Shown here: piece by piece, positions 1 through 31,006 of the stretch
Layout: the number at the start of each line of letters is the position of its first letter
Numbering within the stretch: the first letter of the stretch is position 1
Assembly: GCF_003323735.1 (NCBI RefSeq)
Contig: NZ_QOIM01000039.1
Location: 39,349 to 71,348, forward strand
Direction of reading: 5' to 3'
DNA: 32,000 nucleotides
DNA from: Streptomyces reniochalinae
GTDB lineage: Bacteria; Actinomycetota; Actinomycetes; Streptomycetales; Streptomycetaceae
Notes under the pieces: generated by a model
The model's database searches: none
What the model was told of the DNA's origin: nothing
What the model saw: the letters and a program-made list of their open reading frames with translations, nothing else
Program-made: the position numbers and the translations under genes

Positions 1-762
1 ATGACTCTCACCAATATCGAGACAGAGCTTTGGCTGCGCCGATTCCACCCGGCCCCCGACGCCTCCACGCGTCTCGTCTGTTTTCCGCACGCCGGTGGTT
101 CAGCCTCCTTCTACTTCCCGGTGTCGAAGACTCTGTCGCCGGATGTGGACGTGCTGGCGGTCCAGTACCCCGGCCGCCAGGATCGGCGTAACGAGCCGGC
201 CGTCGAGAGCATCGGCGAGCTCGCCGACCTGATCGCCCCGATGCTGCGCCCGCTGACGGACCGGCCCGTGGCGTTCTTCGGGCACAGCATGGGCGCCGTG
301 ATCGCCTTCGAGGTGGCGCAGCGGCTGGAGCGCGACGGTGTGACGCCGTTCCTCCTCTTCGCGTCCGGCAGGCGCGCCCCGTCCGCCGTGCGCAGCGAGA
401 GCGTGCACCGGGAGAGCGACGACACACTCATCGCCGAACTCCAGCGGCTCAGCGGCACGGACGCCCGCATGCTCGGCGACGAGGAGGTGCTGCGCATGAT
501 CCTTCCGTCGCTGCGCAGCGACTACAAGGCGATCGAAACCTATCGGTGCACGCCGGGCGCCCGGGTCAGCTGCCCCATCGACGTACTCATCGGCGACAGC
601 GACCCGCACGCGAGTCTCGACGAGGCGGGAGCGTGGTCCGAGCACACCACGGGACCGTGCGACGTCGAGGTCTTCGACGGCGGTCACTTCTACCTCAACG
701 ACCACGCCGTGGCCGTGACGGACCGGGTGGCCCGGCGCATCTCCGCGCTGCGGGCGCCCTGA
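1..762 (+). CDS. Type II (discrete, editing-type) thioesterase, alpha/beta-hydrolase
   Basis: 253-aa ORF. Carries the RLVCFPHAGGSASFY N-terminal motif, the nucleophile elbow GHSMG (Ser codon 286-288) and the C-terminal GGHFYL His motif. Length and N-terminus are typical of a full-length PKS/NRPS-associated TEII. The ATG is at window position 1, so the upstream context is unseen. Confidence 0.9.
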   Translation: MTLTNIETELWLRRFHPAPDASTRLVCFPHAGGSASFYFPVSKTLSPDVDVLAVQYPGRQDRRNEPAVESIGELADLIAPMLRPLTDRPVAFFGHSMGAVIAFEVAQRLERDGVTPFLLFASGRRAPSAVRSESVHRESDDTLIAELQRLSGTDARMLGDEEVLRMILPSLRSDYKAIETYRCTPGARVSCPIDVLIGDSDPHASLDEAGAWSEHTTGPCDVEVFDGGHFYLNDHAVAVTDRVARRISALRAP

Positions 763-816: not shown

Positions 817-1008
817 ATGGCAGCGAGCGATTTCCCACCGGCCGAGGCTCCGCGTGTCGCCCTGAGGGAGGCCGAAGATCTCCGGGGCCGCGCCCTGTCG
901 TCCTCCAGCGCGTCGCGTGAGCAGGGCGGGTCGGTGAGTGACGGCGGGTTGTCCGTCTGCGGCGGTAACGAACTCCCGGATTCGGGCGACAAGGGGTTGG
1001 CATCCTGA
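817..1008 (+). CDS. Hypothetical 63-codon upstream ORF, possibly translationally coupled to PKS-1 (may be non-coding leader)
   Basis: ATG at 817 is preceded by GAGG with 5-nt spacing. Its TGA (1006-1008) overlaps the PKS-1 ATG (1008-1010) as TGATG. GC3 is about 79 % by hand count, lower than the flanking genes (above 90 %). The Ser/Gly/Asp-rich product has no motif I recognise. Confidence 0.2.
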
Positions 1009-4000
1009 TGGCTGACGAGAACAGGCTCCGGGACTACTTGAAGCGTGTCTCGGGCGAACTGCACGACACACGCGAACAGTTGCGGCGGATCGAGGGGCGG
1101 GATCACGAGCCGGTCGCGATCGTCGGTATGGCCTGCCGCTACCCGGGCGGCGTCGGGTCGCCGGAGGACCTGTGGCAGCTGGTCGACGACGGTGTCGACG
1201 CGATCTCCGCGTTCCCGACGGACCGCGGCTGGGGCGAGGAGCTGTACCACCCGGACCCGGAGCACCCCGAGACGTCGTACACCCGAAGCGGTGGTTTCCT
1301 CTACGACGCGGGCGACTTCGACCCGGGGTTCTTCTCCATGTCCCCGCGTGAGGCGCTGGGCAGCGATCCGCAGCAGCGCCTGTTCCTGGAGACGTCGTGG
1401 GAGGCGTTCGAGCGGGCCGGCATCGATCCGGTGTCCATGCGGGGCAGCCGTACGGGTGTGTTCGTGGGCGTCATGTACCACGACTACGTACGCAGCGAGG
1501 CGCTCGGCAGCGTCGTCTCGGGCCGGGTCGCCTACACGCTGGACCTCAACGGGCCCGCCGTCTCCATCGACACCGCTTGCTCGTCGTCGCTGGTCGCGCT
1601 GCACCTGGCGGCGAACTCGCTGCGGCGCGGCGAGTGCTCGACCGCGTTGGCCGGTGGCGTGACGGTGATGGCGTCGCCTGGCACGTTCGTCGAGTTCAGC
1701 AGGCAGCGCGGGCTCTCGGCCGATGGCAGGTGCAAGTCGTTCGGCGCGGAGGCGGACGGTACGGGCTGGGCCGAGGGTGCCGGCGTGCTCGTGCTGGAGC
1801 GGCTCTCGGACGCGCGCCGCAACGGCCACCGGGTGCTGGCGGTGCTGCGCGGGAGCGCGGCGACCCAGGACGGCGCCAGCAACGGGCTGTCCGCCCCCAA
1901 CGGCCCGTCGCAGATGCGCGTGATCCGCCAGGCGCTCGCCGACGCCGGACTGTCGGCCTCCCAGGTCGATGTGGTCGAGGCGCACGGCACCGGCACCGTG
2001 CTCGGCGACCCGATCGAGGCGCAGGCGCTGCTGGCGACGTACGGCCAGGACCGTCCCGCGGGCCGCCCGCTGTGGTTGGGCTCGCTCAAGTCCAACATCG
2101 GCCACACGCAGGCGGCAGCCGGGGTGGGCGGCGTGATCAAGGCGGTCATGGCGATGCGCCGGGGGGTGCTGCCCCGCACGCTGCACGCGGCTCGGCCGTC
2201 CCCGCACGTGGACTGGTCGGCGGGCGAGGTGGAACTGCTCACCGAACCGAGGGAGTGGACCCGTGGCGACGGTCCGCGGCGGGCGGGCGTCTCCTCGTTC
2301 GGGTTCAGCGGGACCAACGCACACGTCATCATCGAGGAGGCGCCCCAGGAGGAGGTGCCCCAGGCGGAGCCGGAAGCGGAGGGCGGCGCGGCGGCTCCGC
2401 CCGTCGTGCCGTGGCTGCTGTCGGCGCGGACCTCGGACGCGCTGCCCGCCCAGGCCGACCGGCTGCTGAGCCGGCTGTCGGAACAGGACGCACCGGCCGA
2501 GGTGGTGGGCGCGGCACTCGCGACGACCCGCGCGGTCCTCGACCACCGTGCGGTGATATCGGGCGCGGACCGGGAGGAGTTGCTGGCCGGGCTGCGGGCG
2601 CTCGCGGCCGGCGACCGTCCCGCCAACGTGCTCACCGGTGGCGGGACGGCCGGAAAGCAGGCTTTCCTGTTCAGCGGCCAGGGGAGTCAGCGGCTGGGCA
2701 TGGGGCGCGGGCTCGCGGAGACGTTCCCCGCCTTCGCCGAGGCCCTGGACGAGGTGTGCCGCGCGCTCGACCCCCAGCTGCCGCACCCCGTACGCGCGGT
2801 GATGTGCGCCGAGCCGGGCTCCGAACGCGCCGCGGCGCTCGACGCAACCGGCATGACCCAGCCCGCGCTGTTCGCCTTCGAGGTGGCACTCTTCCGGCTG
2901 GCGACCGCGTTCGGGCTCGCCCCGGACATGCTGGCCGGTCACTCGATCGGCGAGATCGCGGCCGCGCATGTCGCCGGGGTGCTCTCGCTCGACGACGCGT
3001 GCACCCTGGTCGCCGCGCGCGCCCGCCTGATGCAGGAACTCCCCGGGGGCGGCGCGATGCTCGCGGTGGCCGCTGCCGAAGCGGACGTGCTGCCCCTGCT
3101 CGACGGCCGCGCCGGGGTCGGTGTGGCCGCGGTCAACGGGCCGGCCGCCGTGGTCCTGTCAGGGGCCGAGGGGGAGCTCGGCCGGATCGCGGCGCTGCTG
3201 GCCGAACGGTCCGTCAGGACCAGGGAACTCAAGGTCTCGCACGCGTTCCACTCGCCCCTGATGGACCCGATGCTGGACGCTTTCCGGCAGGTCGCGCAGT
3301 CCCTGACCTACCAGCAGCCGACCATCCCGATCATGTCCACAGCCGCCGAGCCGGTCACCGATCCCGAGTACTGGGTCGCCCACGTCCGCCGAACCGTCCG
3401 GTTCGCCGACATGGTGACCGCCGCGCGTACCGCGGGTGCCACGGTGTTCGTCGAGATCGGTCCTGACGGCGTGCTGACCGGCCTCGCCGAGCAGGTCTTC
3501 GATCACGCCGGGGACGACGCGGCGGTAGCCGTCCCGCTCGTGCGCAAGGACCGCGACGAGGCCACGTTCCTGATCGACGCGCTCGGCAGGCTCCACACCC
3601 ACGGCGTCCGCGTCGACTGGAAGACCTACTTCTCAGGCGTGTCCCTGGGCGACTTCGAACTGCCCACCTACGCGTTCCGGCGTCAGCGGTTCTGGCTCAC
3701 GCCTGACGCCGTACAGGCGTCCTCCTCACCCACCGAGGCGGACGACTCCGGCTTCTGGGCCGCTGTGGAGCGTGAGGACGCCGACGCGCTCGCCGCAACG
3801 CTGGGCATCGAGGACGGGTCACCGCTTCTCGGGGTGCTGCCGATGCTGTCCTCCTGGCGCCGCCGCCGGCAGGAACAGTCCGTCCTCGACACCTGGCGAT
3901 ACCGGGTCACGTGGAAGCCGCTCGCCCTCACCACGGCGGCCCCGAAGCTGACGGGTACGTGGTGGCTCGTGGCCGTCGCCGACGACGCGTTGGTGTCCGC

Positions 4001-7000
4001 CGCGACGACCGCGCTCACCGAACACGGCGCCGACGTGCGACTCCTCGAACTCGGTGACGAACTCGACCGCGACCAGGTCGCGCAGACCGTACGGCGCCAC
4101 GCCCTCGCGGCAGCGCCGACGGGCGTGCTGTCGCTCCTCGCCACGTCCGAGCGGGGGCCGGCCCGGACGCTTGCGCTGCTCCAGGCGCTCGGCGACGAGG
4201 AGGTCACCGCACCGGTGTGGCTGGCCACCCAAGGGGCGGAGTCGGTCGGTGGGAGCGATCCGCTGACGGCTCCCGCGCAGAGCGCGGTCGGCGGGCTGGG
4301 CCGGGTCTTCGCCCTGGAGCACGCCGACCGCTGGGGCGGGCTGGTGGATCTGCCGGAGACGGTCGACACCCGCGCCCGCACCCGCCTTGCCGCCGCACTG
4401 GCCGGAATCGACGACGAGGACCAGATCGCCGTCCGCGCGTCGGGGCTCTTCGCCCGCCGTCTGACGCGTGCGCCCCGCACGCCGCGCGGCACGGGCACAT
4501 GGCGCGCGCGCGACACCGCGCTGATCACCGGCGGTACCGGCGGTCTCGGCGCGCACGTGGCGCGCTGGCTCGCCGAGAGCGGCGCCGGACACCTCGTGCT
4601 GGCCGGCCGGCGCGGCGCCGGCGCACCGGGCGCGGCCGACCTCGCCGCCGAACTGGAGCGCACCGGTGTACGGGTGACCGTCGCGGCCTGCGACGTGGCC
4701 GACGCCGACGCGGTCTCCGCGCTGGTCCGCGAGATCGAGGCCGCCGGTGACGTGATCCGCTCGGTGTTCCACACGGCCGGCATACCGCACAGGAAGCGGC
4801 TCGACCTGCTAGGACCCGACGAGCTCGCGTTCGCCACCGCGGCCAAGCTCACTGGCGCCGCCGTGCTCGACGAGGTGTTCGCCGAGCGGGCGCTCGACGC
4901 ATTCGTGCTGTTCTCCTCGGGCGCGGGCGTGTGGGGGAGCGGCGACCAGGGCGCGTATGCCGCGGGCAACGCGTTCCTCGACGCGCTCGCCGCCAACCGC
5001 CGTGCCCGTCAGCTCCCCGGCACGGCCGTCGCCTGGGGCTTTTGGGCGGGATCCGGCATGACGACGTTCCTCGACGAGGACGAAGCGCGCCGCGGCGGCA
5101 TGCCGTTCATGGCACCGGACCGCGCCCTCCAGGGCCTGGCACAGGCACTGGCCGACGACGAGACGCACCTCGTCGTCGCCGACGTCGACTGGGACCGCTT
5201 CCACCCGCTGTTCACCTCCGCGCGGAACCGGCCGCTGATGGCCGACATCGACGAGGTGGCACGCGTCGTCACGGCGGCGTCCGCCACCGCGGCGGAGGAG
5301 GCCACGGCCCCGCTGCGCGCCCGGCTCCTCCCCCTGGGCGACCGCGACCGCGACCGGCTGCTCACCGACCTGGTCCGCGAGCAGGTCGCCACCGTGCTCG
5401 GCCACAGCGACCCCGCCGACGTCGAGGTGGACCGGGCCTTCCGGGACCTGGGCTTCGACTCGGTGTCGGCCGTCGAACTGCGCACCAGGCTCCAGGCCGC
5501 CACCGGAGCACGGGTGCCCACGACGGTCATCTTCGACCATCCGAACGTCAAGGCCGTCACCGCGCTGCTGGCCGGGCAGCTCCTCGGCGAGCGGGAGACG
5601 GCGGGCGACACCGGCCCTGAGACGACGCCGGCCGCCACAGATCCGATCGTCATCGTCGGCATGAGCTGCCGCACCCCCGGTGGGGTGCGCACCCCGGACG
5701 ACCTGTGGCGGCTGGTCGCGGACGGTACCGACGCGATCTCGCCCCTGCCCGAGGACCGCGGCTGGGACGTCGAGGGCGCCTACGACCCGGACCTTACGCG
5801 ACCGCAGACCACGTACGTGCGGGAGGGCGGTTTCGTCGGCGCGGCGGGCGACTTCGACGCGGGCTTCTTCGGGATCTCACCCCGCGAGGCGCTGGCGATG
5901 GACCCGCAGCAGCGGCTGCTGCTGGAGACCGCGTGGGAGGCGGTCGAAGCCGCGCGCATCGACCCGGGCTCGTTGCGCGGCAGCGATACCGGTGTGTTCG
6001 TCGGTACGGCCTACGAGCACTACGGGCGCGGCTCCGAACAGCTCTCCGAGGAGTCGATCGGCCACCTCATGACCGGGACGCTCGGCAGCGTCGTGTCCGG
6101 GCGCACGGCCTACGCGCTCGGCCTGGAGGGGCCGACGCTGACGGTGGACACGGCGTGCTCGTCCTCGCTGGTCGCGCTGCACCTGGCGGCCAACGCGCTG
6201 CGGCGCGGGGAGTGTTCGCTCGCGCTGGCGGGTGGCGTCACGGTCATGTCCACCATGCTCGGTTTCGTCGGGTTCAGCCGCCAGGGCGCGCTCTCCCGCG
6301 ACGGACGGTGCAAGTCCTTCGCCGCGGCGGCGGACGGGTTCGGGCTGTCGGAGGGCGTCGGCATGGTGGCGCTCGAACGGCTGTCGGACGCCCGGCGCAA
6401 CGGCCACCCCGTGCTGGCGGTGGTGCGCGGCTCCGCGGTCAACCAGGACGGTGCTTCGAACGGTCTGACCGCGCCGAACGGCCCCTCGCAGCAGCGGGTG
6501 ATCAGGGCCGCGCTCGCCGACGCCGGCCTGTCCACCTCGGACGTGGACACGGTGGAGGCGCACGGGACGGGAACGGCGCTCGGCGACCCGATCGAGGCCC
6601 AGGCCCTGCTCGCCACCTACGGCCAGGACCGCCCCGCGGACCGCCCGCTGTGGCTGGGGTCGGTCAAGTCCAACATCGGCCACTTGCAGTCCGCCGCGGG
6701 CATCGCGGGTGTGATCAAGATGGTGATGGCGATGCGGCACGGGGTGCTGCCCCCGACGCTGCACGTGGACGCGCCGTCACCGCACGTGGACTGGTCCCAG
6801 GGCGCCGTCGAGCTGCTCACCGAGGCCAGAGCGTGGGAGGACCACGGGAGGGCCCGCCGGGCGGCCGTGTCCTCCTTCGGTGTCTCCGGTACGAACGCGC
6901 ACATCATCCTCGAACAGGCGCCACCGGCCGCCGACGACGCCGACCCCCTCGACGTTCCGGTGGTGCCGTGGCTGATCAGCGCGGGAACCGCCGACGGAGT

Positions 7001-10000
7001 GTCAGGGCAGGCGGCGAAACTGCTGTCGCACCTGGACGGCGGCCTCGACGTGGCGGCCGTGGGCGCCGCGCTGGCGGCGACGCGCGGGGCGCTGGAACAC
7101 CGCGCCGCCGTGGTCGGTCGTGACCGCGCCGAGCTGGTCGCGGGGCTCGAAGTGCTCTCGGCGGGGCAGACGGCCCCCGGTGTCGTGCGGGGCACCGCGG
7201 CGGCGGACCGCAGGGTGGCGATGCTCTTCGCCGGGCAGGGAAGCCAGCTGCCGGGCATGGGCCGTGCCCTGTCCGCCGCGTTCCCGGTGTTCGCGGACGC
7301 GCTGGAGGAGGTCTGCGAGGCTCTGGACCCGCTACTGCCCCGGCCGGTGCGGGAGGTGATGTTCGGCGACGGCGCCGCTCTCGACGAGACGGGCATGACC
7401 CAACCGGCCCTGTTCGCGTACGAGGTCGCGCTCTACCGGCTGCTGACCTCGTTCGGTGTGGTCCCCGACGTGCTGGTGGGGCACTCGATAGGTGAGATCG
7501 CCGCCGCGCACGTGGCGGGCGTGTTCCCGCTGGAGAGCGCGTGCGCCCTGGTTGCCGCGAGGGCGCGGCTGATGCAGGCGTTGCCCGCCGACGGGGCGAT
7601 GCTGGCTGTCGCCGTGTCCGAGGCGGAGGTGACTCCGCTGCTGGACGAGCGGGTCGGCATCGCGGCGGTCAACGGCCCGGACGCGGTGGTGGTCTCGGGC
7701 GCCGGGGACGCGGTGGACGCGATCGCCGCGGTGCTGGCCGAGCGCGGTGTGCGGACCAAACGGCTGCGGGTCTCTCACGCCTTCCACTCGCCGCTGATGG
7801 AGCCGATGGCCGACGAGTTCCGGTTGGTCGCCAAGGGGCTCACCTACCACGAGCCGTCGATTCCGCTGGTGTCGAACGTGACAGGGCGCCCGGCCACCGA
7901 GGGCCTGCTCACTGACCCCGAGTACTGGGTCACGCACGTGCGCCAGGCGGTGCGGTTCGCCGACGGCGTCACAGCGGCCGACGCCTCCGTCCTCGTCGAG
8001 GTCGGCCCCGACGGAGCCCTGACCGGTCTCGCTCAGCACAGCCTGGATCCGACCGCGGTGACCGTCCCCGCCGCGCGCAAGGACCGCGACGAGGACCAGG
8101 CGTTCGTCGAGGCGCTCGCCACTCTCCACACGAGCGGTGTCCCCATCGACTGGGCCGGCTACTTCGGACAGCCGGCCCACCACGTGGACCTGCCCACGTA
8201 CGCCTTCGCGCACCAGCGGTACTGGCTGCCCAGCCCTGGCCGTTCGGCGGGCGACGTGGCCACGGTCGGCCTGGAGACCCCGGCCCACCCGCTGCTCGGC
8301 GCCACCGTCACCCTCGCCGACGGCGGTGTCGTACTGACCGGCAGGCTCTCCCGGGGCACGCACGCGTGGCTGGCCGAGCACGAGATCGGTGGGCAGGTGC
8401 TGGTGCCGGGCACCGCGTTCGTCGAACTGGCCGTGCGCGCCGGTGACGAGGTGGGCTGCGCCACCGTCGAAGAGCTGACGATCGAGTCGCCGCTCGTGCT
8501 GCCCGAACGCGGCAGCGTGCAGGTGCAGGTGGCCGTCGAAGCGCCCGTCGAGGGCAGGCGGGCACTCGGCGTCCACTCACGGGGAGGCGACACCGAGCCG
8601 TGGACGCGGCACGCCACCGGGTCGCTCGTGGCGGACACCCCTGCCCCGGTGCCGGACGACCGCCGCTGGCCGCCGGAGGGCGCGGAGCGGGTGGACGTCA
8701 CGGGCGTCTACGACTGGTTCGGCGGTATCGGGATGCGTTACGGGCCGACGTTCCAGGGGCTCACAGCGGCCTGGCGGCACGACGGGTGCCTCTACGCCGA
8801 GGTCGCTTTGAGCGAGGGCACCGAAGGCACCGACAGGTTCGGCCTGCACCCCGCCCTGCTGGACGCCGCACTGCACGTGATCGCGCTGGACACGGCGGGC
8901 GACACCGGACCACGTGTGCCGTTCAGCTGGACGGGGGTGCGGCTGCACGCCACGGGCGCGACGTCCCTCCGCGTGCGGCTGGCCGACGCCGGAAACGGCG
9001 CGTACGCGGTCACGGTCACCGATCCCGCCGGAACGCCCGTCGCGGACGTCGAGTCACTCGTGATGCGCCCGCTGCCGGTGCGCCCGAGCGCTGCGGCCAC
9101 CGGCACGGACTCGATGTACGCCCTGCGGTGGGAGCCGGTCCACGTCGCGGACGAGGACGCCGCCGAGCCGGTGTGCGTCGAGCCCGACGGCCTGGCCGCG
9201 CTCGCCGAGAACGAGGACGTTCCCGCGCTGGTCGCCGTCGAACTGGTCGCGCCGCACGAGGTGACCGATCTCGCCGGCGCGGTCGGTGAGGCCACCTGCC
9301 GGGTGCTGGAGCTGGTGCGCACCTGGCTGGCCGAGACCCGGTTCGCCTCCTGTCGCCTCGCCCTCGTCACGCGCGGCGCCGTCGCGGTCGGTGGCGCGCA
9401 GGACGACCTGGTCAACGCGGCCGCCTGGGGGCTGGTCAGGTCGGCGCAGGCGGAGAACCCCGACCGCCTGGTCCTCGTCGACATCGACGACGAGCCCGCT
9501 TCCCGTGCCGTGCTCCCCGCGGCACTGGCCACCGGTCGGGAACAGCTGGCCGTGCGGGCGGGCACCGTGCACGTGCCACGACTGGCCGGATTCGGCACGG
9601 GACGGGACGACGGGCTGCTGCCGCCCGCCGGCGCGGAGAACTGGCGGCTGGACGTCAGCAGCCGCGGCACCGTGGACAACCTGGTCCTGGCGCCGGCCGA
9701 GGACGGCGGGCCGTTGGAGCCAGGCGAGGTCAGGGTCGAGGTGCGCGCCGTCGGTCTGAACTTCCGTGACGTGCTGGTCGCGCTGGACATGTACCCCGGT
9801 GACACCCCGATGGGCGGCGAGGGCGCCGGCGTCGTCGTTCAGGTGGCTGAGGACGTGGCCCACCTCGCGCCCGGCGACCGGGTCATGGGCATCTTCCTCA
9901 GCGGGTCGGCCAAGACCTCGGTGACCAGCGCCGACCGGCTGGTGCGCATCCCGGACGCCTGGTCGTTCACCGACGCGGCCTCCGTGCCGATGGCCTTCGC

Positions 10001-11918
10001 CACCGCGTACCACGCCCTGGTCGACCTGGCCGGGCTCACCGCGGGGGAGTCGGTGCTCGTGCACGCCGCCGCCGGCGGTGTCGGCATGGCCGCCGTGCAG
10101 ATCGCCGCGCACCTCGGGGCCGAGGTCTACGGCACCGCGAGCCAGGGCAAGCAGGACGTGCTGCGCGGCAACGGCCTCGCGGACCGGCGGATCGCGTCCT
10201 CGCGCACGCTCGACTTCGCGGACACCTTCGACGCCGCGTCCGGCGGCCGGGGCGTCGACGTGGTGCTCAACTCGCTCGCCGGAGACTTCATCGACGCCTC
10301 CCTGCGCCTGATGCCACGCGGCGGACGTTTCATCGAGATGGGCAAGGCCGACGTGCGCGACCCCGATGCCGTGGCACGAGCACAGCCCGGTGTCGAGTAC
10401 CAGAGCTTCGACCTGGCCGCGCTGCCCGGACAGCGGGTGGGGGAGATCCTCGGCGAGATCGTGTCCCTGTTCGACGAGGGGGCGTTGACGCTGCTGCCCG
10501 TCGAGACCTGGGACGTGCGCAGGGCGCGGGACGCCTTCCGGCACATCGCTCAGGCGCAGCACATCGGCAAGGTCGTGCTGACCATGCCGCGTGCGCTCGA
10601 CCCGGAAGGAACCGTGCTCGTCACCGGCGGCACCGGCGCCCTCGGCGCGCTGGCCGCGCGCCACCTCGTGACGGAACACGGTGTGCGTCACCTCGTGCTG
10701 ACGAGTCGCCGCGGCCCTGCCGGCGAGGGCGCCGCCGCGCTACGGGAGGAGCTGACCGCGCTCGGCGCCTCGGTCCGGGTCCTGGCCTGCGACGCGGCCG
10801 ACCGGGCCGCACTCGCCGGCGTGCTCTCGGACATCCCCAGCGAGCACCCGCTCACCGGCGTCGTGCACACCGCGGGGGTGCTGGCCGACGGCGTCGTCGC
10901 TGCGATGACCCCCGAACAGGTCGCACGCGTGCTGCGGCCGAAGGTGGACGCGGCGGTCAATCTGCACGAGCTGACCCGGGACACGGACCTCGCCGCGTTC
11001 GTCCTCTACTCAGGAGCGGCCGGCGTGCTGGGCAACGCCGGACAGGGCAACTACGCCGCCGCCAACACCTTCCTCGACGCCCTCGCCCGCCACCGGCACG
11101 CCGCGGGGCGCGCCGCCACCTCGCTGGCGTGGGGCCTGTGGGAGCAGGCACCCGGCACCGGCATCACCGGACACCTCGACGAGACGGACCTGCGCAGGCT
11201 GCGGCGGGGTGGCTTCGGCGCCCTGTCCGCGGAAGCGGGTCTGGCGCTGCTCGACGTCGCGCTCTCGTCCGACGAGGCGGCTCTCGTACCGATCCGGCTC
11301 GACCTCGCGGCCATGGGAGCGGCGGGGGTTCCCCCGCTGTTCAGCGGGCTCGTACGTACGCCCTCGCGGCGGGTGCTGAACTCCGGCGCGAGGGCGGCCG
11401 AGTCCCTCGCCGAACGGCTCGCCGCACTCCCGGAAGCCGAGCTGCAACCCGCCGTACTGGACCTGGTCCGCGGGCATGTGGCCGCCGTGCTCGGCTTCCC
11501 GGGCCCGGAATCCGTCGATCCGGGCCACGCCTTCAACGAGATCGGCTTCGACTCGCTGACCTCCGTGGAGTTCCGCAACCGGCTCATGGCCGCCACCGGG
11601 CTCCGGCTGCCCGCGACGCTCGTCTTCGACCATCCGACCCCCGAGGTGCTGGCCGCCCACCTGCTCGCCGAGATCGCGCCACCCACACGCACCCCCGAGG
11701 AGCGGCTGCTCGCCGAACTCGACCGGATCGAGGCGGCGCTCGCCGCCGCGGCGGCCGACGGCGGAAGCCCCGACCGGGTCACGGCGCGGTTGCAGCAGTT
11801 GTCGTCCAGCTGGCGCAAGCAGACGCGGGCCGCGGAGTCCGACGTCTCCGGGCAGTTGGAGAACGCCAGCGCGGACGAGGTACTCACGTTCATCGACAGC
11901 GAGCTCGGCCTCGCCTGA
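1008..11918 (+). CDS. Modular type I polyketide synthase, two extension modules (KS-AT-KR-ACP, KS-AT-DH-ER-KR-ACP)
   Basis: 3636-aa ORF with very high GC3. It has an N-terminal coiled-coil docking helix (residues 1-33, [19 protein letters not shown]), two complete modules (see module features) and a C-terminal docking tail ([15 protein letters not shown]). The KS is Cys-type, not KSQ, and there is no loading didomain. Confidence 0.97.
1107..5585 (+). other. PKS-1 module A: KS-AT(malonyl-type)-KR-ACP
   Basis: KS approx 1107-2340 (DTACSSS with Cys codon 1578-1580; EAHGTGT; [12 protein letters not shown]). AT approx 2660-3630 (GHSIGE with Ser codon 2943-2945; HAFH 3240-3251; [15 protein letters not shown]). 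KR approx 3890-5215 (TGGTGGLG 4527-4550; the K, S and Y signatures AAKLTG, FSSGAG and [13 protein letters not shown] are present). ACP approx 5355-5585 (LGFDS, Ser codon 5460-5462). Domain borders are approximate and were set by eye. Confidence 0.9.
5640..11680 (+). other. PKS-1 module B: KS-AT(malonyl-type)-DH-ER-KR-ACP (full reduction)
   Basis: KS approx 5640-6920 (Cys codon 6156-6158). AT approx 7220-8160 (GHSIGE with Ser codon 7485-7487; HAFH 7776-7787). DH approx 8285-9090 ([10 protein letters not shown] with His codon 8379-8381; GMRYGPTF; VPFSW; [10 protein letters not shown]). ER approx 9640-10590 (LNFRDVL; HAAAGGVG approx 10062-10085). KR catalytic part approx 10600-11150 (TGGTGALG; LAD 10881-10889 at the LDD position; [13 protein letters not shown]). 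ACP approx 11455-11680 (IGFDS, Ser codon 11553-11555). Confidence 0.9.
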
Positions 11919-11942: not shown

Positions 11943-14900
11943 ATGGCGACCGAGGAGCAGTTGGTCGAGTACCTCAAGCGCGTGACCACGGAGCTGCACG
12001 ACACCCGCGCGCGTCTGGAGCAGGCCGAGGACAAGGACCACGAACCGATCGCGATCATCGGAATGGCCTGCCGGTTCCCCGGCGGGATCGCCTCGCCCGA
12101 GGACCTGTGGCGCCTCGTCGCCGAGGGCACCGACGCGATGACGGGATTCCCCGAGGACCGCGGCTGGGACGTCGAGTCGCTCTACGACCCCGACCCCGAC
12201 CGCGTCGGCACGTCGTACGTGCGAGAGGGCGGGTTCATCGACGGTGCCACCGAGTTCGACCCCGCGTTCTTCCAGGTCAGCCCGCGCGAGGCCGCCGGCA
12301 TGGACCCCCAGCAGCGGCTCGCCCTGGAGACCGCGTGGGAGGCGATCGAACGCGCCGGGATCGACCCGACGACGCTGCGCGGCAGCCGTACCGGGGTGTT
12401 CGTGGGCGCGAACAGCGGCGAGTTCATGACGCTCATGACGCAGGCTGAACCCGAGTTGCAGGGCTACCTGATGACAGGTGTGTCCCCCAGCGTGGTGTCC
12501 GGGCGCATCTCCTACACGTTCGGGCTGGAGGGCCCCGCGGCGACCGTCGACACCGCGTGCTCCTCCTCGCTGACCGCGCTGCACCTCGCGGTGCGCGCAC
12601 TGCGCGACGGCGACTGCACGATGGCGGTCACCGGCGCGGTCACGGTGTTGTCCACCCCGGGCACGTTCATCGGGTTCAGCCGGCAGCGCGCGCTGGCGAA
12701 GGACGGCCGGTGCAAGGCGTTCTCCGCCGCAGCGGACGGCATGGCGGCCGCGGAGGGCGTCGGCATGTTCCTCGTCGAGCGGCTGTCCGACGCCGTGCGG
12801 CTGGGACACCCGGTGTGGGCGGTCGTGCGGGGCTCCGCGGTCAACCAGGACGGCGCCTCGAACGGCCTGACGGCGCCGAACGGTCCCTCGCAGCAGCGGG
12901 TGATCCAGCAGGCGCTCGCCAACGCGAAACTGTCGGCACGCCAGGTCGACGTCGTCGAGGCACACGGCACCGGCACGCCACTGGGTGACCCGCTCGAGGC
13001 GCAGGCGCTCATGGCCACCTACGGCCAGGACCGCCCGGACGGCCGGCCCCTGTGGATCGGCTCGGTCAAGTCCAACATCGGACACGCGCAGGCGGCGGCC
13101 GGCGCGGCCGGCATCGTCAAGGCCGTGATGGCCCTGCACCACGGCGTCATGCCCAAGACGCTGCACGCGCAGGAACGGTCACCGCACATCGACTGGGCCG
13201 AGGGCGACGTCGAACTGCTCACCGAGGCGCGCGCGTGGCACAGCGACGGCGAACCACGCCGGGCCGGTGTGTCGTCGTTCGGGTTCAGCGGCACCAACGG
13301 GCACGTCATCCTGGAGGAGTTCGAGGCACCGCCGGTGGACGACGCCGAGACAGGGGACCTGCCCTCGGTGCCGTGGGTGCTCTCGGCGCGCGGCGCCGAC
13401 GCGGTGCGCGGCCAGGCCCGCGCACTCCTGGCGCACCCCGCCGCCGACGCGGACCCGGCCGCCGTGGCCGCTTCGCTCGTCCGTGGCCGTTCCGCCTTCG
13501 AGCACCGCGCCGTCGTGGTGGGCGCCGACCGTGCGGAACTGGTCGCGGGGCTGCGGGCGCTGGGCGAGGGCGTGGACGCGGCGGGCGTGGTGGAGGGCGT
13601 CGCGGGGCCGCTGGGGAAGTCGGCGTTCGTGTTCCCCGGACAGGGCGGGCAGTGGGTGGGCATGGGCCTGGCGCTGGCCGGTTCGAACCCGGTGTTCGGG
13701 GAACGGCTGGCGGAGTGCGAACAGGCGCTGGCACCGTTCCTGGACTGGTCGCTGTCCGCGGTGCTGCGCGGCGACGACGACGCGCCGGGACTGGACCGCA
13801 TCGACGTGCTCCAACCCGTTTTGTGGTCGATGATGGTCTCGCTGGCGCAGGTGTGGCGCTCGTGCGGGGTGGAGCCCGCAGCGGTGGTGGGACACTCCCA
13901 GGGCGAGGTCGCGGCGGCCGTCGTCGCCGGCGCGCTGTCCCTGGAGGACGGTGCGCGGATCGTGGCGCTGCGCTCCCAGCTGCTGCTGGAGATCACCGGA
14001 CTCGGTGGCATGGCATGGGTACCGTCACCCGCCGACGAGGTCGGCGAGCGGCTCACGCGGTGGGCCGGGCGGCTGTGCGTCGCCGCCGTGAACGGGCCGT
14101 CCGCCACCGTCGTCTCCGGGGATCTCGACGCGCTGGAGGAACTGGTGGCCGCCTACGCGGCCGAGGGCGTACGGGTCCGCAAGGTCGGTTCGTCCTGCGC
14201 GGGCCACTCGGCGCAGGTGGAGGTGGTGGAGGAGCGGCTCGCTCAGATGCTGCGCCCCATCGAGCCGCGCGAGTGCGCCATCCCGTGGTACTCGACGGTC
14301 CGCGGCCGCTGGCTCACCGGAACCGAGGCCGACGCCGGGTACTGGTACGAGAACCTGCGTGAGCTCGTCGGGTTCGGCCCGGCCATCGAGGCGCTCGCCG
14401 CCGAGGGTTTCCGGCTCTTCGTCGAGTCCAGCGTCCACCCCACACTGAAGATCGACACGGAGGACAACCTGGAGAACGCCGGGGTGTCGGACGCGCTCGT
14501 GGTCGGCTCGCTGCGCCGCGACGACGGCGGCCCCGACCGCCTGACGGCCTCGCTGGCCGAGGCGTGGGTGCGTGGCGCGGACATCGACTGGGCGGGCCTG
14601 ATCGGTCCCCGGCCGCGGGTCGACCTGCCGACCTACGCGTTCCAGCGTCAGGCCTACTGGCCGAAGACCACGTCGCGGACGGTCGACGCCTCCGGACTCG
14701 GACTCGGCGCCCCCGCCCACCCGTTGCTCGGCGCCACCGTCTCACTCGCCGACGGCCAGGGGGTGATGCTCACCGGCAGGCTGTCCGTGAAGACGCACCC
14801 CTGGCTGGCCGACCACACGGTCGGCGGCCACGTGCTGCTGCCGGGCACCGCGTTCGTGGAGCTCGCCCTCCGCGCGGGCGACGAGGTCGGCTGCCGCCTC

Positions 14901-17900
14901 GTCGACGAGCTGACCCTGGAGGCCCCGCTGGTCCTGCCCGAGCGCGGTGGCGTGCAACTCCAACTGGCCGTGCACACCGCCGAGGACGGACGGCGCCCGT
15001 TCACCGTTCACTCCCGCGGCGACGACGCCGCACCGGACGAGCCGTGGACGAGGCACGCCACGGGTCTCCTCGCCGCCGACGCGCCCGCGGCACACTTCGG
15101 CCAGGACGTCTGGCCGCCGGCAGACGCGACCGCACTGGCCCCCGAGACGATCTACGACAAGGTGGCCGCGGTGGGCGTCGGGTACGGGCCCGCGTTCCGC
15201 GGACTGCGCGCACTGTGGCGGCGGAACGACGAGATCCTCGCCGAAGTCGCCCTGCCCCAGGACACCGCCGACAGCGACGGCTTCGGGCTGCACCCCGCGT
15301 TGCTCGACGCCGCGCTGCACCCGCTCGCCCTCAGCGGTGTCCTCGGCGACCGGGGGAGCGACGAGGGGCCGCTGCTGCCGTTCGCGTGGTCCGGCGTGCG
15401 GCTCCAGGCCACCGGCGCCACCGCACTGCGGGTCCGGCTGTCGCCCGCCGGTGGCAGCGCGGTCCGGGTGGACGTGGCGGACACCGCCGGTGTGCCGGTG
15501 GCGTCTGTCGACTCACTCGCCGTCAGGCCGCTGCCCGCCGAAGCCCTCAACCGCTCCGCGGATCCGCTGCGCGGCGGGCTGTTCCAGCTGGACTGGGTGC
15601 CCGCGCCGGCGCGCTGGGAGCCCGCTCTCGACGGTGCGACGTGCGTCCTTGTCGGCGAGTCGGACGAACTGCGGTCCGCGCTGGAAGCGGCGGGCGCCCG
15701 GATCGAGGACGCCTCCGTCCGTACACCGGACATGGGGTTCCTGGTGGTCGGCCGGCCCGCCGCGCCGGATCTGCCGGAGGCCGTGCGGGAGGCCACAGGG
15801 CAGGTGCTGGCCGCGGCCCAGGAGTGGCTGGCGGAGGACCGCAACGCCGGTGTGCCGCTCGTGGTGCTGACCCAGGGGGCGGTCGCGGTGGCCGAGGAGG
15901 CGCCCGCGGACCTGGCACAGTCGGCGGTCTGGGGGCTCGTCCGCTCGGCGCAGTCGGAGAACCCCGGCGGATTCGTGCTCGTCGACACGGACCTGACCCA
16001 TGCGTCGTGGGAGGCACTCGCCGCGTCGCTGGCCTCCGGAGAGCCGCAGATCGCGCTGCGCGAGGGCGTGGCCCACGTGCCCAGGCTCGCCCGGCACCCC
16101 GAGCCCGAGGAGCCCGCCGACCCGTGGGCCCGCGCCGGCACGGTGCTGATCACCGGTGGCACCGGCACGCTGGGCGCACTCGTCGCCCGCCACCTCGTCG
16201 TCGAACACGGCGTGCGCCGTCTGCTGCTGACCAGCAGGAGCGGCCCCGCCACCGAGCGGGCGGCGCGGCTGCGGGAGGAGCTCACCGAGCTGGGTGCCGC
16301 GGTGTCCGTCGTCGCCTGCGACGTGGCCGACCGCGAGGCCCTGGCGCAGGTGCTGGCCGCTGTCCCCGCCGAGCACCCGCTGACCGGTGTCGTGCACGCC
16401 GCGGGCGCGCTCGACGACGGTGTCCTCGCCTCGCTCACCCCCCAGCGGGTCGATGCCGTGCTGCGCCCCAAGGTGGAGGGCGCGCTGAACCTGGACGAGC
16501 TCACCCGAGACCTGCCGCTGTCCGCGTTCGTGCTGTTCAGCTCCGCCGCCGGTGTGTTCGGCGGTCCCGGCCAGGCCAACTACGCCGCGGCCAACGCGTT
16601 CCTCGACGCGCTCGCGCGGCGCAGGCGCGCCCAGCACCTCCCGGCCATGTCGCTGGCCTGGGGGCTGTGGGAAGAGGCCAGCGGACTGACCGGCGTGCTG
16701 GACGAAACCGACCGCGCGCGCCTGAGCCGGATCGGTGTGGGGCCGCTGTCCACCCCGGAGGGGCTGGCGCTGTTCGACGCGGCGTGCGCGGCCGACGCGC
16801 ACACGCTCGTCCCGGTCCGGCTGGAGTTCACGGCGCTGCGCGCGGCGGCCAGGGTCGGTGCCGTGCAGTCGATCCTGTGGGGCCTGGTGCCCTCCCCGGC
16901 GCGCCGGGTCGTCGGCGAGGGCGCGGCGGCGGCGTCCCAGCTGCGGGACCGGCTGGCCCGCATGCCGGAGTCGGAGTACATGCGCACGCTGCTGGAGGTG
17001 GTACGCACCCAGGCGGCGGTGGTGCTCGGGCTGCCGAACGCCGACGCCGTCGACGACCAGCGGGCGTTCCGGGAGGCCGGGTTCGACTCGCTGACCGCCG
17101 TCGAGTTCCGCAACCGGATGAACGCCACGACCGGGCTGCGGCTGCCCGCGACGCTCGTCTTCGACCATCCGACGCCGCACGCGCTCGCCGAGTACCTGCT
17201 CGCCGAGCTGCTCGACGCGGGGACCGGCGCGAGCGCACCCGCCACAAGGCAGGTGGGGGACGACGAGCCGATCGCCATCGTCGGCATGAGCTGCCGGCTG
17301 CCCGGTGGCGTGAGTTCGCCCGAGGACCTGTGGCAGCTCGTCGCCGACGGCGGTGACGTCATCTCGACGTTCCCGGCCGACCGCAACTGGAACCTCGACC
17401 AGCTCTACGACCCGGACCCCGAACACCGTGGCACCAGCTACACCCGGCACGGCGGGTTCATCTACGACGCGACCATGTTCGACGCGGCGTTCTTCGGCAT
17501 CTCACCGCGCGAGGCACTGACCATGGACCCGCAGCAGCGACTGCTGCTGGAGGGCGCCTGGGAGGCGCTGGAGCACGCGGGCATCGACCCTGCCGCGGTC
17601 CGCGGCAGCAGCACGGGCGTCTTCGTCGGGCTGACCTACCACGACTACGGCGCGCAGTTGCAGAACCTGCCCAGCGAACTGGAGGGCTTCGTCGGCACCG
17701 GGGTGTCCGCGGCGGTCGCCGCGGGCCGGGTGTCCTACACGTTCGGCTTCGAGGGGCCGTCGATGACCGTCGACACCGCGTGCTCCTCCTCGCTGGTGGC
17801 CCTGCACCAGGCGGCCCAGTCGCTGCGCCGCGGCGAGTGCTCGCTCGCGCTGTCCGGAGGCGTGACCGTGCTGTCCACGCCGGGAGTCTTCGTCGACTTC

Positions 17901-20900
17901 AGCCGCCAGCGCGGGCTGGCTCCGGACGGCCGGTGCAAGTCGTTCGCGTCCGCCGCCGACGGCACGGGCTGGAGCGAGGGCATGGGCGTGCTCGTGCTGG
18001 AGCGGCTGTCCGACGCGCGGCGCAACGGCCATCCGGTGCTCGCGGTGGTGCGCGGCAGCGCGGTGAACCAGGACGGGGCGAGCAACGGGCTGACCGCGCC
18101 GAACGGCCCCTCCCAGCAACGCGTGATCCGCCAGGCGCTCGCCGGCGCGGGACTGTCCGCCCCGGACGTCGACGCGGTCGAGGGACACGGCACCGGCACC
18201 ACGCTGGGCGACCCGATCGAGGCACAGGCGCTGTTGGCCACCTACGGCCAGGACCGGCCGGCGGACCGGCCGCTGTGGCTGGGCTCGGTGAAGTCCAACA
18301 TGGGGCACACGCAGGCCGCCGCCGGCATGGCCGGCGTGATCAAGATGGTGATGGCGCTGCGCAACGGCGTGCTGCCCGCGACGTTGCACGTGGACGAGCC
18401 GTCCGCGCACGTGGACTGGTCCACCGGCGCCGTCAGGCTGCTGACCGAGCCGCAGGACTGGCCGGTGGCACAGCGGCCGCGCCGCGCAGGTGTGTCCGCC
18501 TTCGGCATCGGCGGCACCAACGCGCACACCATCATCGAGGAGGCACCCGCCCGCCCTGTGGAGCAGGCCGCCGTGGAGACCGCGCGCCCACCGCTGGTGG
18601 GCTGGCCGCTGTCGGCGAAGAGCGCCCAGGCGCTGGCCGGACAGGCACGGCGGCTCCACGCCCACCTGGCGCGCCACCCCGAGCTGTCAGGCAACGACCT
18701 CGCGCACTCGCTCGCCACGACCAGGTCGGCGTTCCGGCACCGCGCGGTGGTCACCGGCGCGGGCCGAGACGAGCTCGTCGCGGGCCTGGAGGCGCTGATC
18801 GCGGGCGCGCCGGCGGCCAACCTGACCACCGGGACCACGCGCTCGGGCAAGGTGGCGTTCCTGTTCACGGGGCAGGGCAGCCAGCGACTGCGGATGGGGG
18901 AGGCCCTGTACGCGGCCTACCCGGTCTACGCGGCCGCGTTCGACGAGGTCTGCGCACAGCTGGACAAGCACCTGGACGGTCAACTGCGCGACGTGGTCCT
19001 CTCAGACGCCGAGTTGCTCAAGCGGACCGACTACACGCAGGCCGCGCTGTTCGCGGTCGAGGCCGCCCTCTACCGCCTGCTGCGCCACTGGGGCGTCAGG
19101 CCCGACTTCCTCGCGGGCCACTCGATCGGTGAGCTCGTCGCCGCCTACGTGGCCGGTGTCTTCTCGCTGGAGGACGCCGCCGCGCTGGTCGCGGCGCGCG
19201 GCCGCCTGATGCAGGCGCAGCCGCCCGCGGGCGCCATGGTGTCGGTGCGAGCACCGGAGGAGGCCGTCCGTCAGCTGCTCGACGGGAGGACCGACGAGGT
19301 CGGCATCGCCGCGGTCAACGGGCCGGCCTCCGTCGTGATCTCCGGAGTGACCGCGGCGGTCGAGGAGATCGCGGGGCTGCTCGCCGAGTCGGGGCACAAG
19401 ACCAGGAAGCTCGTCGTCAGCCACGCCTTCCACTCGCCACTGATGGACCCGGTACTCGCGGAGTTCACCGCCGTCGCCGAGGGCGTGGCCTTCCAGCCGC
19501 CCCGCATACCCGTCATCTCGGGCGTGACCGGAGCGCAAGCCACCGACGAGGAGCTGACCTCGCCCGCGTACTGGGCCAGGCACCTGCGCGACACGGTCAG
19601 GTTCCACGACGGCGTCGCCACCCTGCGGGACGCGGGCGTCACCACCTTCCTCGAACTCGGCCCCGACGCGGTGCTCTCCGCGATGGTCCAGGAGTGCGTC
19701 ACCGACGGCGATGTCGCCGTGGCCGCCGTGCTGCGGCGCGACCGCGACGAGGCCGCCGCCCTCCTCGACGCGCTCGCGCTGGCCCACACCGGGGGCGTCG
19801 ACGTGGACTGGGGGGCCGCCGCCGGGCCCGCCGACGTGGTGCCGCTGCCGACGTACGCCTTCCAGCGCACGTGGTTTTGGCCGGACGCGGCGCCGCCCAG
19901 GACCCCGGTCGAGGACCCGCTGTGGGCGGCGGTCGACAGCGAGGACCCGGACGCACTGGTGCGGCTGCTCGGGCCGGCCGCCGAGCACCGGGCCGAGGAC
20001 CTGCTGGCCGCGCTGGCGGCACTGCGCGACGGTTCCCCCGACCGCCTGCCCCGGTACCGGATCGAATGGACGCCGAGGGCCCAGACGCCCGAGGCCGCGC
20101 TGACCGGCACCTGGCTGCTGGTCGCCGGGCCGGGGGCGGACGATCCGCGGGTGCGCGATGTCGCCGCCGCGCTGACCTCGGCCGGCGCGGAGGTCAGCGC
20201 GGCGACCGCCGACGACCTCGGGGACGCGGGCGCGCCCGCCTACGCGGGGGTGGTCTGCCTGGTCCCGGCCGACGACGACACCGGATGGTTCGCCGATGCC
20301 GTGCTGTCGTCGGCGGCCGCCGACGGCGGGACCTCACCGGTGTGGCTGCTGACCTCGGGTGCGACGGCGCTGTCCGAGGACGGACCGGCCGCGGCGCGTG
20401 GGCACCTGCGGGCATGGGGGCTGGGGCGCGCCGCGGGAGCTGCACATCCGCAGCCCCGGGTCGGGCTCGTCGACCTGCCGCCGCGCCTGGACGGGCTGGC
20501 GCGCACCAGGTTGTGCGCCGTTTTGTCCGGGCGCACGGGTGAGGACGAGATCGCCCTCAGGCAGCCGGGCGCCTTCGTCCCCCGGCTGCGGCGGGTGCCA
20601 TCGCGGCGGGGCGGGCTGTGGCAGCCGGAGGGCACCGTCGTGGTCGCCGGAACGCTGGACGCGGCCGCGATCGCGTTCGCGCGCTGGGCCGCGGGCAACG
20701 GCGCGGACCGGGTCGTGGTGACCGCTCCCTGCATCGAGCTGGAGGGGGAGCCGGGGATCGTCGTCGACCAGGCAGACCCCGCGCAGGGCGGGCCGGCGGG
20801 GGACGCGCCGGCCGCCGTCTTGTACCGGGGAGAGGACGAGCACGTCGCCGAAGCCCTGCACGGGCTGGCCGCGTCGGGGGCGCTGGTGACCCTTCTCCCC

Positions 20901-21485
20901 GCCGAAGCGGTGTGGGGCGCTGCCGGGCCGAGCGCCTGCGCGGCGCTGGTCGGCTTCGATGCGCTGGCCCGTCGGCGGGCGGCGGCGGGGATGGCCTCGT
21001 TGTCCGCGGCCATCAGCGTCCGTGAACCGGCGGACGCCGTCACGGCGATCCGGCAGGCGCTCGCGGCAGGCGAGACGACCCTGGTCGTCACCGCCGACGG
21101 GCTGCCCTCGGACGGTGGGCGCTCGTCCCTGCTCGGTGGTGCCTCCGACCGCGGTGCGGCTTCTCAGTCCGGTGAGGAGCCCGCAGCCGGGGTGATCGAC
21201 AGCGCGGCGGAGTTCGGCCGGCGGTTCGCGGCGGTCGAGCCGGACGAGCGGGGCGCGTTCGTGCTGGAGCTCGTGCGTGCGCAGGTGGCCGCGCTGCTGA
21301 ACTTCGCGTCCGCCGAGGAGATCGACCCGGGCGTGGAGTTCTTCGAGTTCGGCATGTCCTCGATGGCCGCCATCGAACTGCGTGCCCGGATCGCCGCGCT
21401 GACCGACGTCCAGCTTGCCCCCGACGTGGTCTACGAGTACCCGAGCGCGGTCACGCTCGCCGAGTACCTGCTCACCGCTCTGTGA
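11943..21485 (+). CDS. Modular type I polyketide synthase, two extension modules (KS-AT-DH-KR-ACP, KS-AT-KR0-ACP), no release domain
   Basis: 3180-aa ORF starting 24 nt after the PKS-1 stop, with GGAGAAGGGG upstream of its ATG. Its N-terminal docking helix ([19 protein letters not shown]) is paralogous to that of PKS-1. The protein ends 40 residues after the last carrier-domain serine, and a hairpin follows the stop. Confidence 0.97.
12042..17215 (+). other. PKS-2 module C: KS-AT(branched-extender clade, CAGH motif)-DH-KR(B-type)-ACP
   Basis: KS approx 12042-13320 (Cys codon 12558-12560). AT approx 13625-14600 (GHSQGE with Ser codon 13896-13898; CAGH 14196-14207 in place of YASH; [10 protein letters not shown]). 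DH approx 14717-15530 ([10 protein letters not shown] with His codon 14814-14816; GVGYGPAF; LPFAW; [10 protein letters not shown]). KR approx 15590-16690 (TGGTGTLG from approx 16150; LDD 16410-16418; [13 protein letters not shown]). ACP approx 16990-17215 (AGFDS, Ser codon 17088-17090). Confidence 0.9.
17265..21482 (+). other. PKS-2 module D: KS-AT(malonyl-type)-degenerate KR (KR0)-atypical carrier domain
   Basis: KS approx 17265-18545 (Cys codon 17781-17783). AT approx 18856-19830 (GHSIGE with Ser codon 19122-19124; HAFH 19422-19433). The KR structural subdomain is recognisable at approx 20050-20600. The catalytic subdomain (approx 20620-21080) reads [13 protein letters not shown] (20631-20669) instead of TGGTGxLG, and has Cys (20937-20939) where the catalytic Tyr sits. 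Carrier core is [14 protein letters not shown] (Ser codon 21360-21362). Confidence 0.85.
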
Positions 21486-30804: not shown

Positions 30805-31006
30805 GCCGACGGCGCCGTACTCTGCGTTCGTCCTGGGGTGGGTAGGGGCAGAAATCTGGGGTGTGAACGAGGCGAGCATCCGGCCACAATCTGAAGCAGG
30901 CTCTTGGGTGCTGCCGCGCGATTCGTGGGTCGTGCACGGAAGAACTGATGCGGCGACCGAGCCACGATTTGCCCGCGTGCGCGTATTCACACTACGGAAG
31001 GTCACT

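Follow-up and report, generated by a model that had tools for sequence, protein, structure and literature searches.

The question raised by this locus was which extender unit is loaded by AT3, the acyltransferase (AT) of the third module encoded in a 32,000-nucleotide stretch of Streptomyces reniochalinae DNA (NCBI RefSeq assembly GCF_003323735.1, contig NZ_QOIM01000039.1). This stretch, hereafter the window, corresponds to C19:39349-71348 of a 70-contig assembly. AT3 belongs to a type I polyketide synthase (PKS) and carries the tetrad CAGH at the position where YASH is usually found. AT3 probably loads ethylmalonyl-CoA supplied by its own cluster's crotonyl-CoA carboxylase/reductase (CCR), and would then place a single ethyl branch beside the chain's 3-oxoacyl terminus. 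We infer the substrate, the branch's place in the product, and a tetramate ending from the sequence features described below. Those of AT3 and its gene were as follows.

11943..21485, plus strand: PKS gene encoding 3180 amino acid residues, with the modules KS-AT3-DH-KR-ACP and KS-AT(malonyl)-dead KR-ACP
13608..14522, plus strand: AT3, residues ~556-860 of the 3180-residue PKS
13797..13856, plus strand: RIDVLQP-containing motif of AT3, residues 619-638, with Ile following Arg
13890..13907, plus strand: nucleophile elbow GHSQGE, residues 650-655, with the Ser652 codon at 13896-13898 (by translation and motif location)
14187..14207, plus strand: GSS-CAGH replacing the usual (P)VD-YASH, with the CAGH tetrad at 14196-14207, residues 752-755

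Translation of 11943-21485 reproduced the AT3 motifs and coordinates given by a first-pass annotation of this DNA (GHSQGE, its Ser codon, and CAGH at 14196-14207), but the domain start that it had placed at 13625 was one base out of frame; AT3 reads in the frame of 11943. The domain looks active because it retains the catalytic Ser-His dyad and the Arg that binds the carboxylate (VALRS). AT3 showed the characteristics of branched-extender cis-ATs, namely GHSQGE, RxDVxQPxxxxxxVSLAxxW, and closest relatives among non-malonyl ATs. It had CAGH and RIDVLQP instead of the YASH and RVDVVQP of methylmalonyl-specific ATs, and its tetrad, in which Tyr is replaced and Ser is changed to Gly, was of the small-residue kind found in cis-ATs specific for ethylmalonyl or alkylmalonyl units. 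These features suggest that AT3 is a branched-extender cis-AT whose pocket would be opened by the changes Tyr to Cys, Ser to Gly, VD to SS, and RVDV to RIDV.

The first-pass annotation had noted that no CCR gene occurs within the window. This was true, though a CCR belongs to the cluster: the search of the flanking genome for ccr that it had proposed located an operon of CCR and 3-hydroxyacyl-CoA dehydrogenase (3HCDH) genes on contig C15, which is joined to C19 through the assembly graph.

C15:31039-32490, divergent: RPE65/carotenoid-oxygenase-like gene, first in the CCR operon (PF03055, 387 bits)
C15:32755-34227, divergent from the first PKS gene: CCR (TIGR01751, 588 bits)
4 nt after the CCR gene: two-domain 3HCDH, the two genes together spanning C15:32755-35982

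A cluster-encoded CCR with a hydroxyacyl-CoA dehydrogenase is the usual supply of ethylmalonyl-CoA. The CCR encoded on C15 scored 749 bits with the K. setae CCR (6OWE), 516 bits with the octenoyl-CoA enzyme CinF, and 235 bits with AntE, and is, by these scores, of the canonical crotonyl-CoA type. The genome contained three CCR matches, on C15, C33, and C18. The C15 protein was 71% identical to the C33 copy, which adjoins malyl-CoA-lyase-like and acyl-CoA dehydrogenase genes and presumably serves the ethylmalonyl-CoA pathway as its housekeeping enzyme. The third match, at C18:84407-85582, was a divergent CCR-like gene (495 bits to TIGR01751; 36% identical to the other two) with an enoyl-CoA hydratase, an MFS transporter, and FAD monooxygenases as neighbors.

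A tblastn search of the whole genome with AT3 yielded 15 AT copies on C19, C59, and C15, repeats counted. AT3 was the sole exception among them, as the other 14 carried GHS[IV]GE and SHAFHS and were of the malonyl type; motif location likewise bore out the first-pass reading of GHSIGE and HAFH (as VSHAFHS) in AT1, AT2, and AT4 of the window. The other GHSQGE ATs of the genome were on C30 and C52, both linked to other contigs in the overlap graph, and on C33, where the pair occupies the contig interior at about 310 kb. Because the other 14 cluster ATs are of the malonyl type, AT3 would be the only plausible user of the CCR product. The proposal that the third module installs a non-methyl alpha-branch was thus strengthened by the cluster CCR and 3HCDH genes and by the status of AT3 as the sole non-malonyl AT of 15.

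The operon was assigned to the cluster through exact overlaps between contigs. To the right of the window, C19 encoded an AMP-dependent ligase, a carboxyltransferase, and a third PKS that ran off the contig end. The final 121 nt of C19 were exactly the start of C59, a 670-nt malonyl AT piece with three entries (C19+, C36-, C41-) and three exits (C36-, C43+, C37-) that was used three times, and C36, C43, C41, and C37 each contained in-frame PKS segments fitting between the C59-AT copies. A 121-nt match linked the end of C37 to an internal part of C15 (21697 down to 21577), and C15 itself began with 107 nt that matched its own positions 20649 down to 20543. Because both ends match the AT at C15:20543-21697, an exact copy of that AT is predicted to bridge C37 to the start of C15. 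Near-identical module repeats thus split the third PKS gene over seven contigs (C19, C59, C36, C43, C41, C37, and C15), and the order of its inner pieces was not unique; its predicted product is a seven-module protein ending at C15:8132. The genes that follow on C15 were as listed here.

C15:8606-12106, convergent: C-A-PCP nonribosomal peptide synthetase (NRPS)
C15, after the NRPS gene: gene encoding 376 amino acid residues
C15:12605-30679, minus strand: PKS of 6025 amino acid residues, starting with a KSQ-AT-ACP loading module (VDSAQSA)

The KSQ loading module indicates that the starter would be acetate derived from malonate. Independent support for the join between C19 and C15 came from G260, the genome of another species of the genus, in which homologues of genes from both contigs lie side by side. 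The G260 homologue of the PKS containing AT3 had 3293 residues and aligned end to end with 62.4% identity, and that of the preceding PKS gave a single end-to-end alignment with 63.1% identity. Next to them were homologues of the NRPS (61%), the 376-residue protein (61%), and the tail of the 6025-residue PKS (56%). The AT at the position of AT3 in G260 carried GHSQGE, RVDVVQP, and YASH, and the only CCR of that genome lay 5.4 Mb from the cluster.

To place CAGH among known tetrads, about 1190 AT domains were cut from 370 PKS proteins returned by two large protein searches. YASH was found 729 times, HAFH 213 times, and CAGH only three times including AT3. Neither of the remaining CAGH domains, one in a partial PKS of Streptomyces sp. 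NPDC053086 and one in a 5328-residue protein, was characterized; the names of the other proteins with xAGH or CAGH that were checked included no characterized one, and the literature searched yielded no characterized CAGH AT. Among 400 genomes of the genus and 40 relatives, no CAGH orthologue was detected, and the AT closest to AT3 was that of G260, with 63% identity. In protein collections, the matches listed, which were ranked by the summed scores of multi-AT proteins, had at most 59% identity to AT3. A back-translated pattern scan of genome contigs with the C-terminal region returned distant relatives only, at 37% or less. The single mate of the AT3-containing PKS in its 90%-identity cluster was an identical protein from a complete genome, apparently of the same species. 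As CAGH lies outside the usual motif tables, automated predictors would probably call AT3 methylmalonyl-specific or "unknown," and pairing the CAGH domain with the cluster CCR gives a reasoned substrate call instead.

Compared with 725 YASH-type ATs, AT3 differed at 13 positions conserved in at least 85% of them. Around the tetrad these were V to S, D to S, Y to C, and S to G, at positions where the YASH-type ATs had V, D, Y, and S in 95-100% of cases (100% for the tetrad Tyr and Ser). In RVDVVQP, whose first Val was conserved in 91%, AT3 had I and L in place of two V residues; in WAVMVSLA it had S for A and M for V, and after GHSQGE it had V for I. After removal of duplicates, Val followed the Arg of RVDVVQP in 445 of 498 YASH ATs, whereas 11 of 12 xAGH ATs and 30 of 32 [VIACGT]ASH ATs had Ile or Leu there. 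AT3 has Ile at this position (RIDV), whereas the G260 homologues have Val together with YASH. The residue after Arg is thus a second, nearly binary marker that could aid AT prediction. This covariation of RIDV with the loss of Tyr, together with a G260 homologue that has YASH and no nearby CCR, further favors a non-methyl branch.

The modules of the window upstream and downstream of AT3 define where such a branch would lie. The two type I PKS genes are co-directional and comprise four modules by their domain motifs.

1008..11918, plus strand: preceding PKS gene encoding 3636 amino acid residues, KS-AT-KR-ACP followed by KS-AT-DH-ER-KR-ACP, both ATs with GHSIGE and HAFH
18846..19811, plus strand: AT4, malonyl-type (GHSIGE, VSHAFHS)

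In the proposed pathway, acetoacetyl-CoA and crotonyl-CoA would be converted to ethylmalonyl-CoA by the dedicated 3HCDH and the canonical CCR of the cluster, and AT3 would load the (2S)-ethylmalonyl-CoA. A 2-ethyl-2-enoyl intermediate would result from module 3 (KS-AT-DH-KR-ACP), and the last module, with its dead KR, would add one malonate. Because the last module adds one malonate only, the sole alkyl branch is predicted to adjoin the 3-oxo group used by the separately encoded NRPS module. The chain would have about 30 carbons and a single side branch, set by AT3, and product prediction for this orphan cluster therefore hinges on AT3.

The combination of an unusual AT with a CCR is a familiar arrangement. 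The AT of tylactone module 5 (TAGH, 8JPU), the classical ethylmalonyl-specific domain, shares GHSQGE and the xAGHSAQV context with AT3; it differs in having Thr instead of Cys at the first tetrad position and VD instead of SS before the tetrad. It relies on a CCR-derived extender. The GST-VASH ATs of salinomycin (6IYT, SalAT14; 7VRS and 7VT1, module 9) have, in KVIGSTVASHSAQV, the same unusual pre-tetrad G-S-[ST] as AT3, with VASH where AT3 has CAGH and RIEILQP where AT3 has RIDVLQP. SalAT14 is presumably ethylmalonyl-specific. In overall similarity AT3 was not closer to these domains, which scored 345-347 bits, than to the methylmalonyl AT8 of salinomycin (6IYR), which scored 359 bits; the further matches were other solved cis-ATs. 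Thailandin AT13 (AAGH) and ossamycin AT7 (SPGH) resemble AT3 in combining small residues in place of Tyr and Ser with a cluster CCR (PMC6273641, PMC6490886), but their CCRs and partner genes point to longer chains, whereas the CCR described here is of the canonical crotonyl type. Among published tetrads, TAGH goes with ethylmalonyl units (PMC7327777), and SPGH of ossamycin AT7 and VASH go with isobutyrylmalonyl units, small tetrad residues generally going with larger extenders (PMC6490886).

Several results weigh against ethylmalonyl-CoA as the substrate. In an IQ-TREE analysis of 55 ATs, with experimentally verified ATs including the Tyl AT standing outside the tree, AT3 grouped (SH-aLRT 93) with the G260 cluster's YASH ATs and a further two resembling them, and not with ethylmalonyl or alkylmalonyl ATs; most xAGH and VASH ATs, including both other CAGH domains, were in another part of the tree. 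The closest relatives of AT3 by overall similarity were all YASH ATs. The 67-residue segment around the tetrad scored 54-56 bits with the salinomycin GST-VASH ATs and tylactone AT5 (55 bits, among the best solved matches) and at most 47 bits with solved methylmalonyl ATs, but it was not discriminating, with scores of 60-69 bits for YASH ATs of the genus. The C19-C15 join consists of exact overlaps through collapsed repeats in the assembly graph and not of closed sequence, and the type of the C15 CCR was judged on overall scores and not on individual residues gating chain length.

Much of this would fit a domain that still loads methylmalonyl-CoA, alone or mixed with ethylmalonyl-CoA, with CAGH being tolerated and the CCR serving precursor supply or neighboring metabolism. 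The nesting of AT3 among YASH-type ATs is the main argument for such a domain, and its positional homologue in G260 is itself a YASH AT. Methylmalonyl-specific ATs with VASH exist, VASH pockets loading methylmalonate in some systems (PMC7327777), and a small first tetrad residue alone therefore cannot exclude a methyl branch. The known member of the family, lydicamycin, uses methylmalonate, with a relaxed AT choice in one module (PMC4572681). Against this, AT3 has lost both pocket-restricting residues (Tyr and Ser) together with the covarying change from RVDV to RIDV, a CCR-3HCDH operon stands at the edge of a cluster that would otherwise need only malonyl-CoA, and the YASH homologue in G260 has no CCR nearby. 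We therefore consider methylmalonyl-CoA loading unlikely. The tree itself was divided on the non-methyl branch proposed by the first-pass annotation: the position of AT3 among YASH-type ATs counted against it, and the long terminal branch of AT3 (0.57, compared with 0.02-0.18 in its neighbors) and its 61-64% identity counted for it.

Because the other CAGH ATs sit elsewhere in the tree, CAGH has arisen more than once, and AT3 looks like a methylmalonyl-type AT altered in place and not an imported ethylmalonyl AT. A specificity switch may thus have occurred, in which a methylmalonyl AT of the lydicamycin family was converted in place to an AT for ethylmalonyl or larger units and a duplicated housekeeping CCR-3HCDH pair was recruited; we hold this tentatively, at somewhat less than an even chance. 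Besides Y to C, S to G, VD to SS, and the RVDV to RIDV change, the switch would have taken some nine further substitutions at conserved sites. If so, the comparison of AT3 with its YASH homologue provides a short, testable list of changes sufficient to re-aim an AT. Swapping the motif alone has served AT engineers poorly, and this pair, together with the RVDV/RIDV covariation, offers concrete residues for AT engineering.

A larger or different CCR-derived unit, such as propyl-, butyl-, allyl-, or haloethylmalonyl-CoA, seems about as improbable a substrate as methylmalonyl-CoA. Cys and Gly would open more room than TAGH or VASH, and AT3 has no characterized close relative. AAGH goes with butylmalonyl-CoA, as proposed for thailandin AT13 (PMC6273641), and CPTH with allylmalonyl-CoA (PMC7327777). 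The cluster CCR is nevertheless far closer to crotonyl-CoA enzymes than to CinF or AntE, and no FabH-like or medium-chain acyl-CoA supply genes were found in the annotated stretches of the cluster. The carboxyltransferase also bears on this point.

C19:73537-75252, 2.2 kb right of the window: carboxyltransferase beta subunit (best solved match 7W5U, an acetyl-CoA carboxylase beta chain, 859 bits)

In the medium-chain enzyme MccB the signature residues are Gly161 and Ala423, and Phe marks short-chain enzymes (PMC5187497). The carboxyltransferase keeps this short-chain Phe (YGGIFQRN) at the position of MccB Gly161 and has Ile (GGAYIVMDS) at the position of PccB Asp422. A CCR-independent route to a medium-chain extender, with the ligase and the carboxyltransferase acting in the manner of MccB, was rejected on the basis of this Phe/Ile pair and the resemblance to the acetyl-CoA carboxylase beta chain. 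The more likely role of the carboxyltransferase is to raise the supply of malonyl-CoA for 14 malonate units, and carboxylation of butyryl-CoA by this enzyme is conceivable.

Loading of an ACP-linked extender (methoxymalonyl- or hydroxymalonyl-ACP), as by FAGH and HAGH ATs, is very improbable: xAGH tetrads occur in methoxymalonyl ATs too (PMC7327777) and the window contains an O-methyltransferase gene, but no FkbGHIJK-type genes were found in the cluster, the single FkbH gene of the genome lies on C27, which falls with other PKS contigs into a different assembly-graph component, and the window methyltransferase is of the Methyltransf_2 type with a dimerization domain.

Outside the PKS genes, the window and its left flank contained the following features.

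1..762, plus strand: type II thioesterase, directly upstream of the PKS genes (PF00975, 210 bits)
30863-31999: O-methyltransferase, Methyltransf_2 type with a dimerization domain
C19:36245-37603, about 1.7 kb left of the window: 5-aminolevulinate synthase (TIGR01821, 532 bits, exceeding the cut-off), between a LAL regulator and the thioesterase

The O-methyltransferase is presumably not of the small class I FkbG type. The remaining window genes encoded a membrane acyltransferase-3, two P450s, an FG-GAP protein, an aldehyde dehydrogenase, a TetR regulator, and an MFS pump. To the left of the window, the LAL-type regulator and the 5-aminolevulinate synthase were followed by housekeeping genes. 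5-Aminolevulinate synthases in Streptomyces clusters make the C5N (2-amino-3-hydroxycyclopentenone) unit. No amide synthetase was identified, and the AMP-dependent ligase at C19:71567-73420 may be the partner of the synthase.

The cluster as a whole resembled the lydicamycin line (Streptomyces lydicamycinicus TP-A0598) and G260, with the last two PKS proteins having the same sizes and domain order and being followed, as in lydicamycin-type lines, by a small gene and a C-A-PCP NRPS (PMC4572681). It differed from these lines in its KSQ acetate-type loading, the proposed starter of lydicamycin being guanidinobutyryl, and in the use of malonate by 14 of 15 ATs, the CCR operon, the carboxyltransferase, and the 5-aminolevulinate synthase. 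The region of the window at 19890-21485, comprising the dead KR and the last ACP, showed 43-48% identity to G260, compared with 79-81% for the KS, and was the least conserved of the regions compared. An AT of Lentzea sp. NPDC058450 (residues 540-877) was 57% identical to AT3 and carried YPSH and, without the elbow His, GGSQGE; the dead-KR tail of the PKS in the window also had matches in related loci of Lentzea and Umezawaea.

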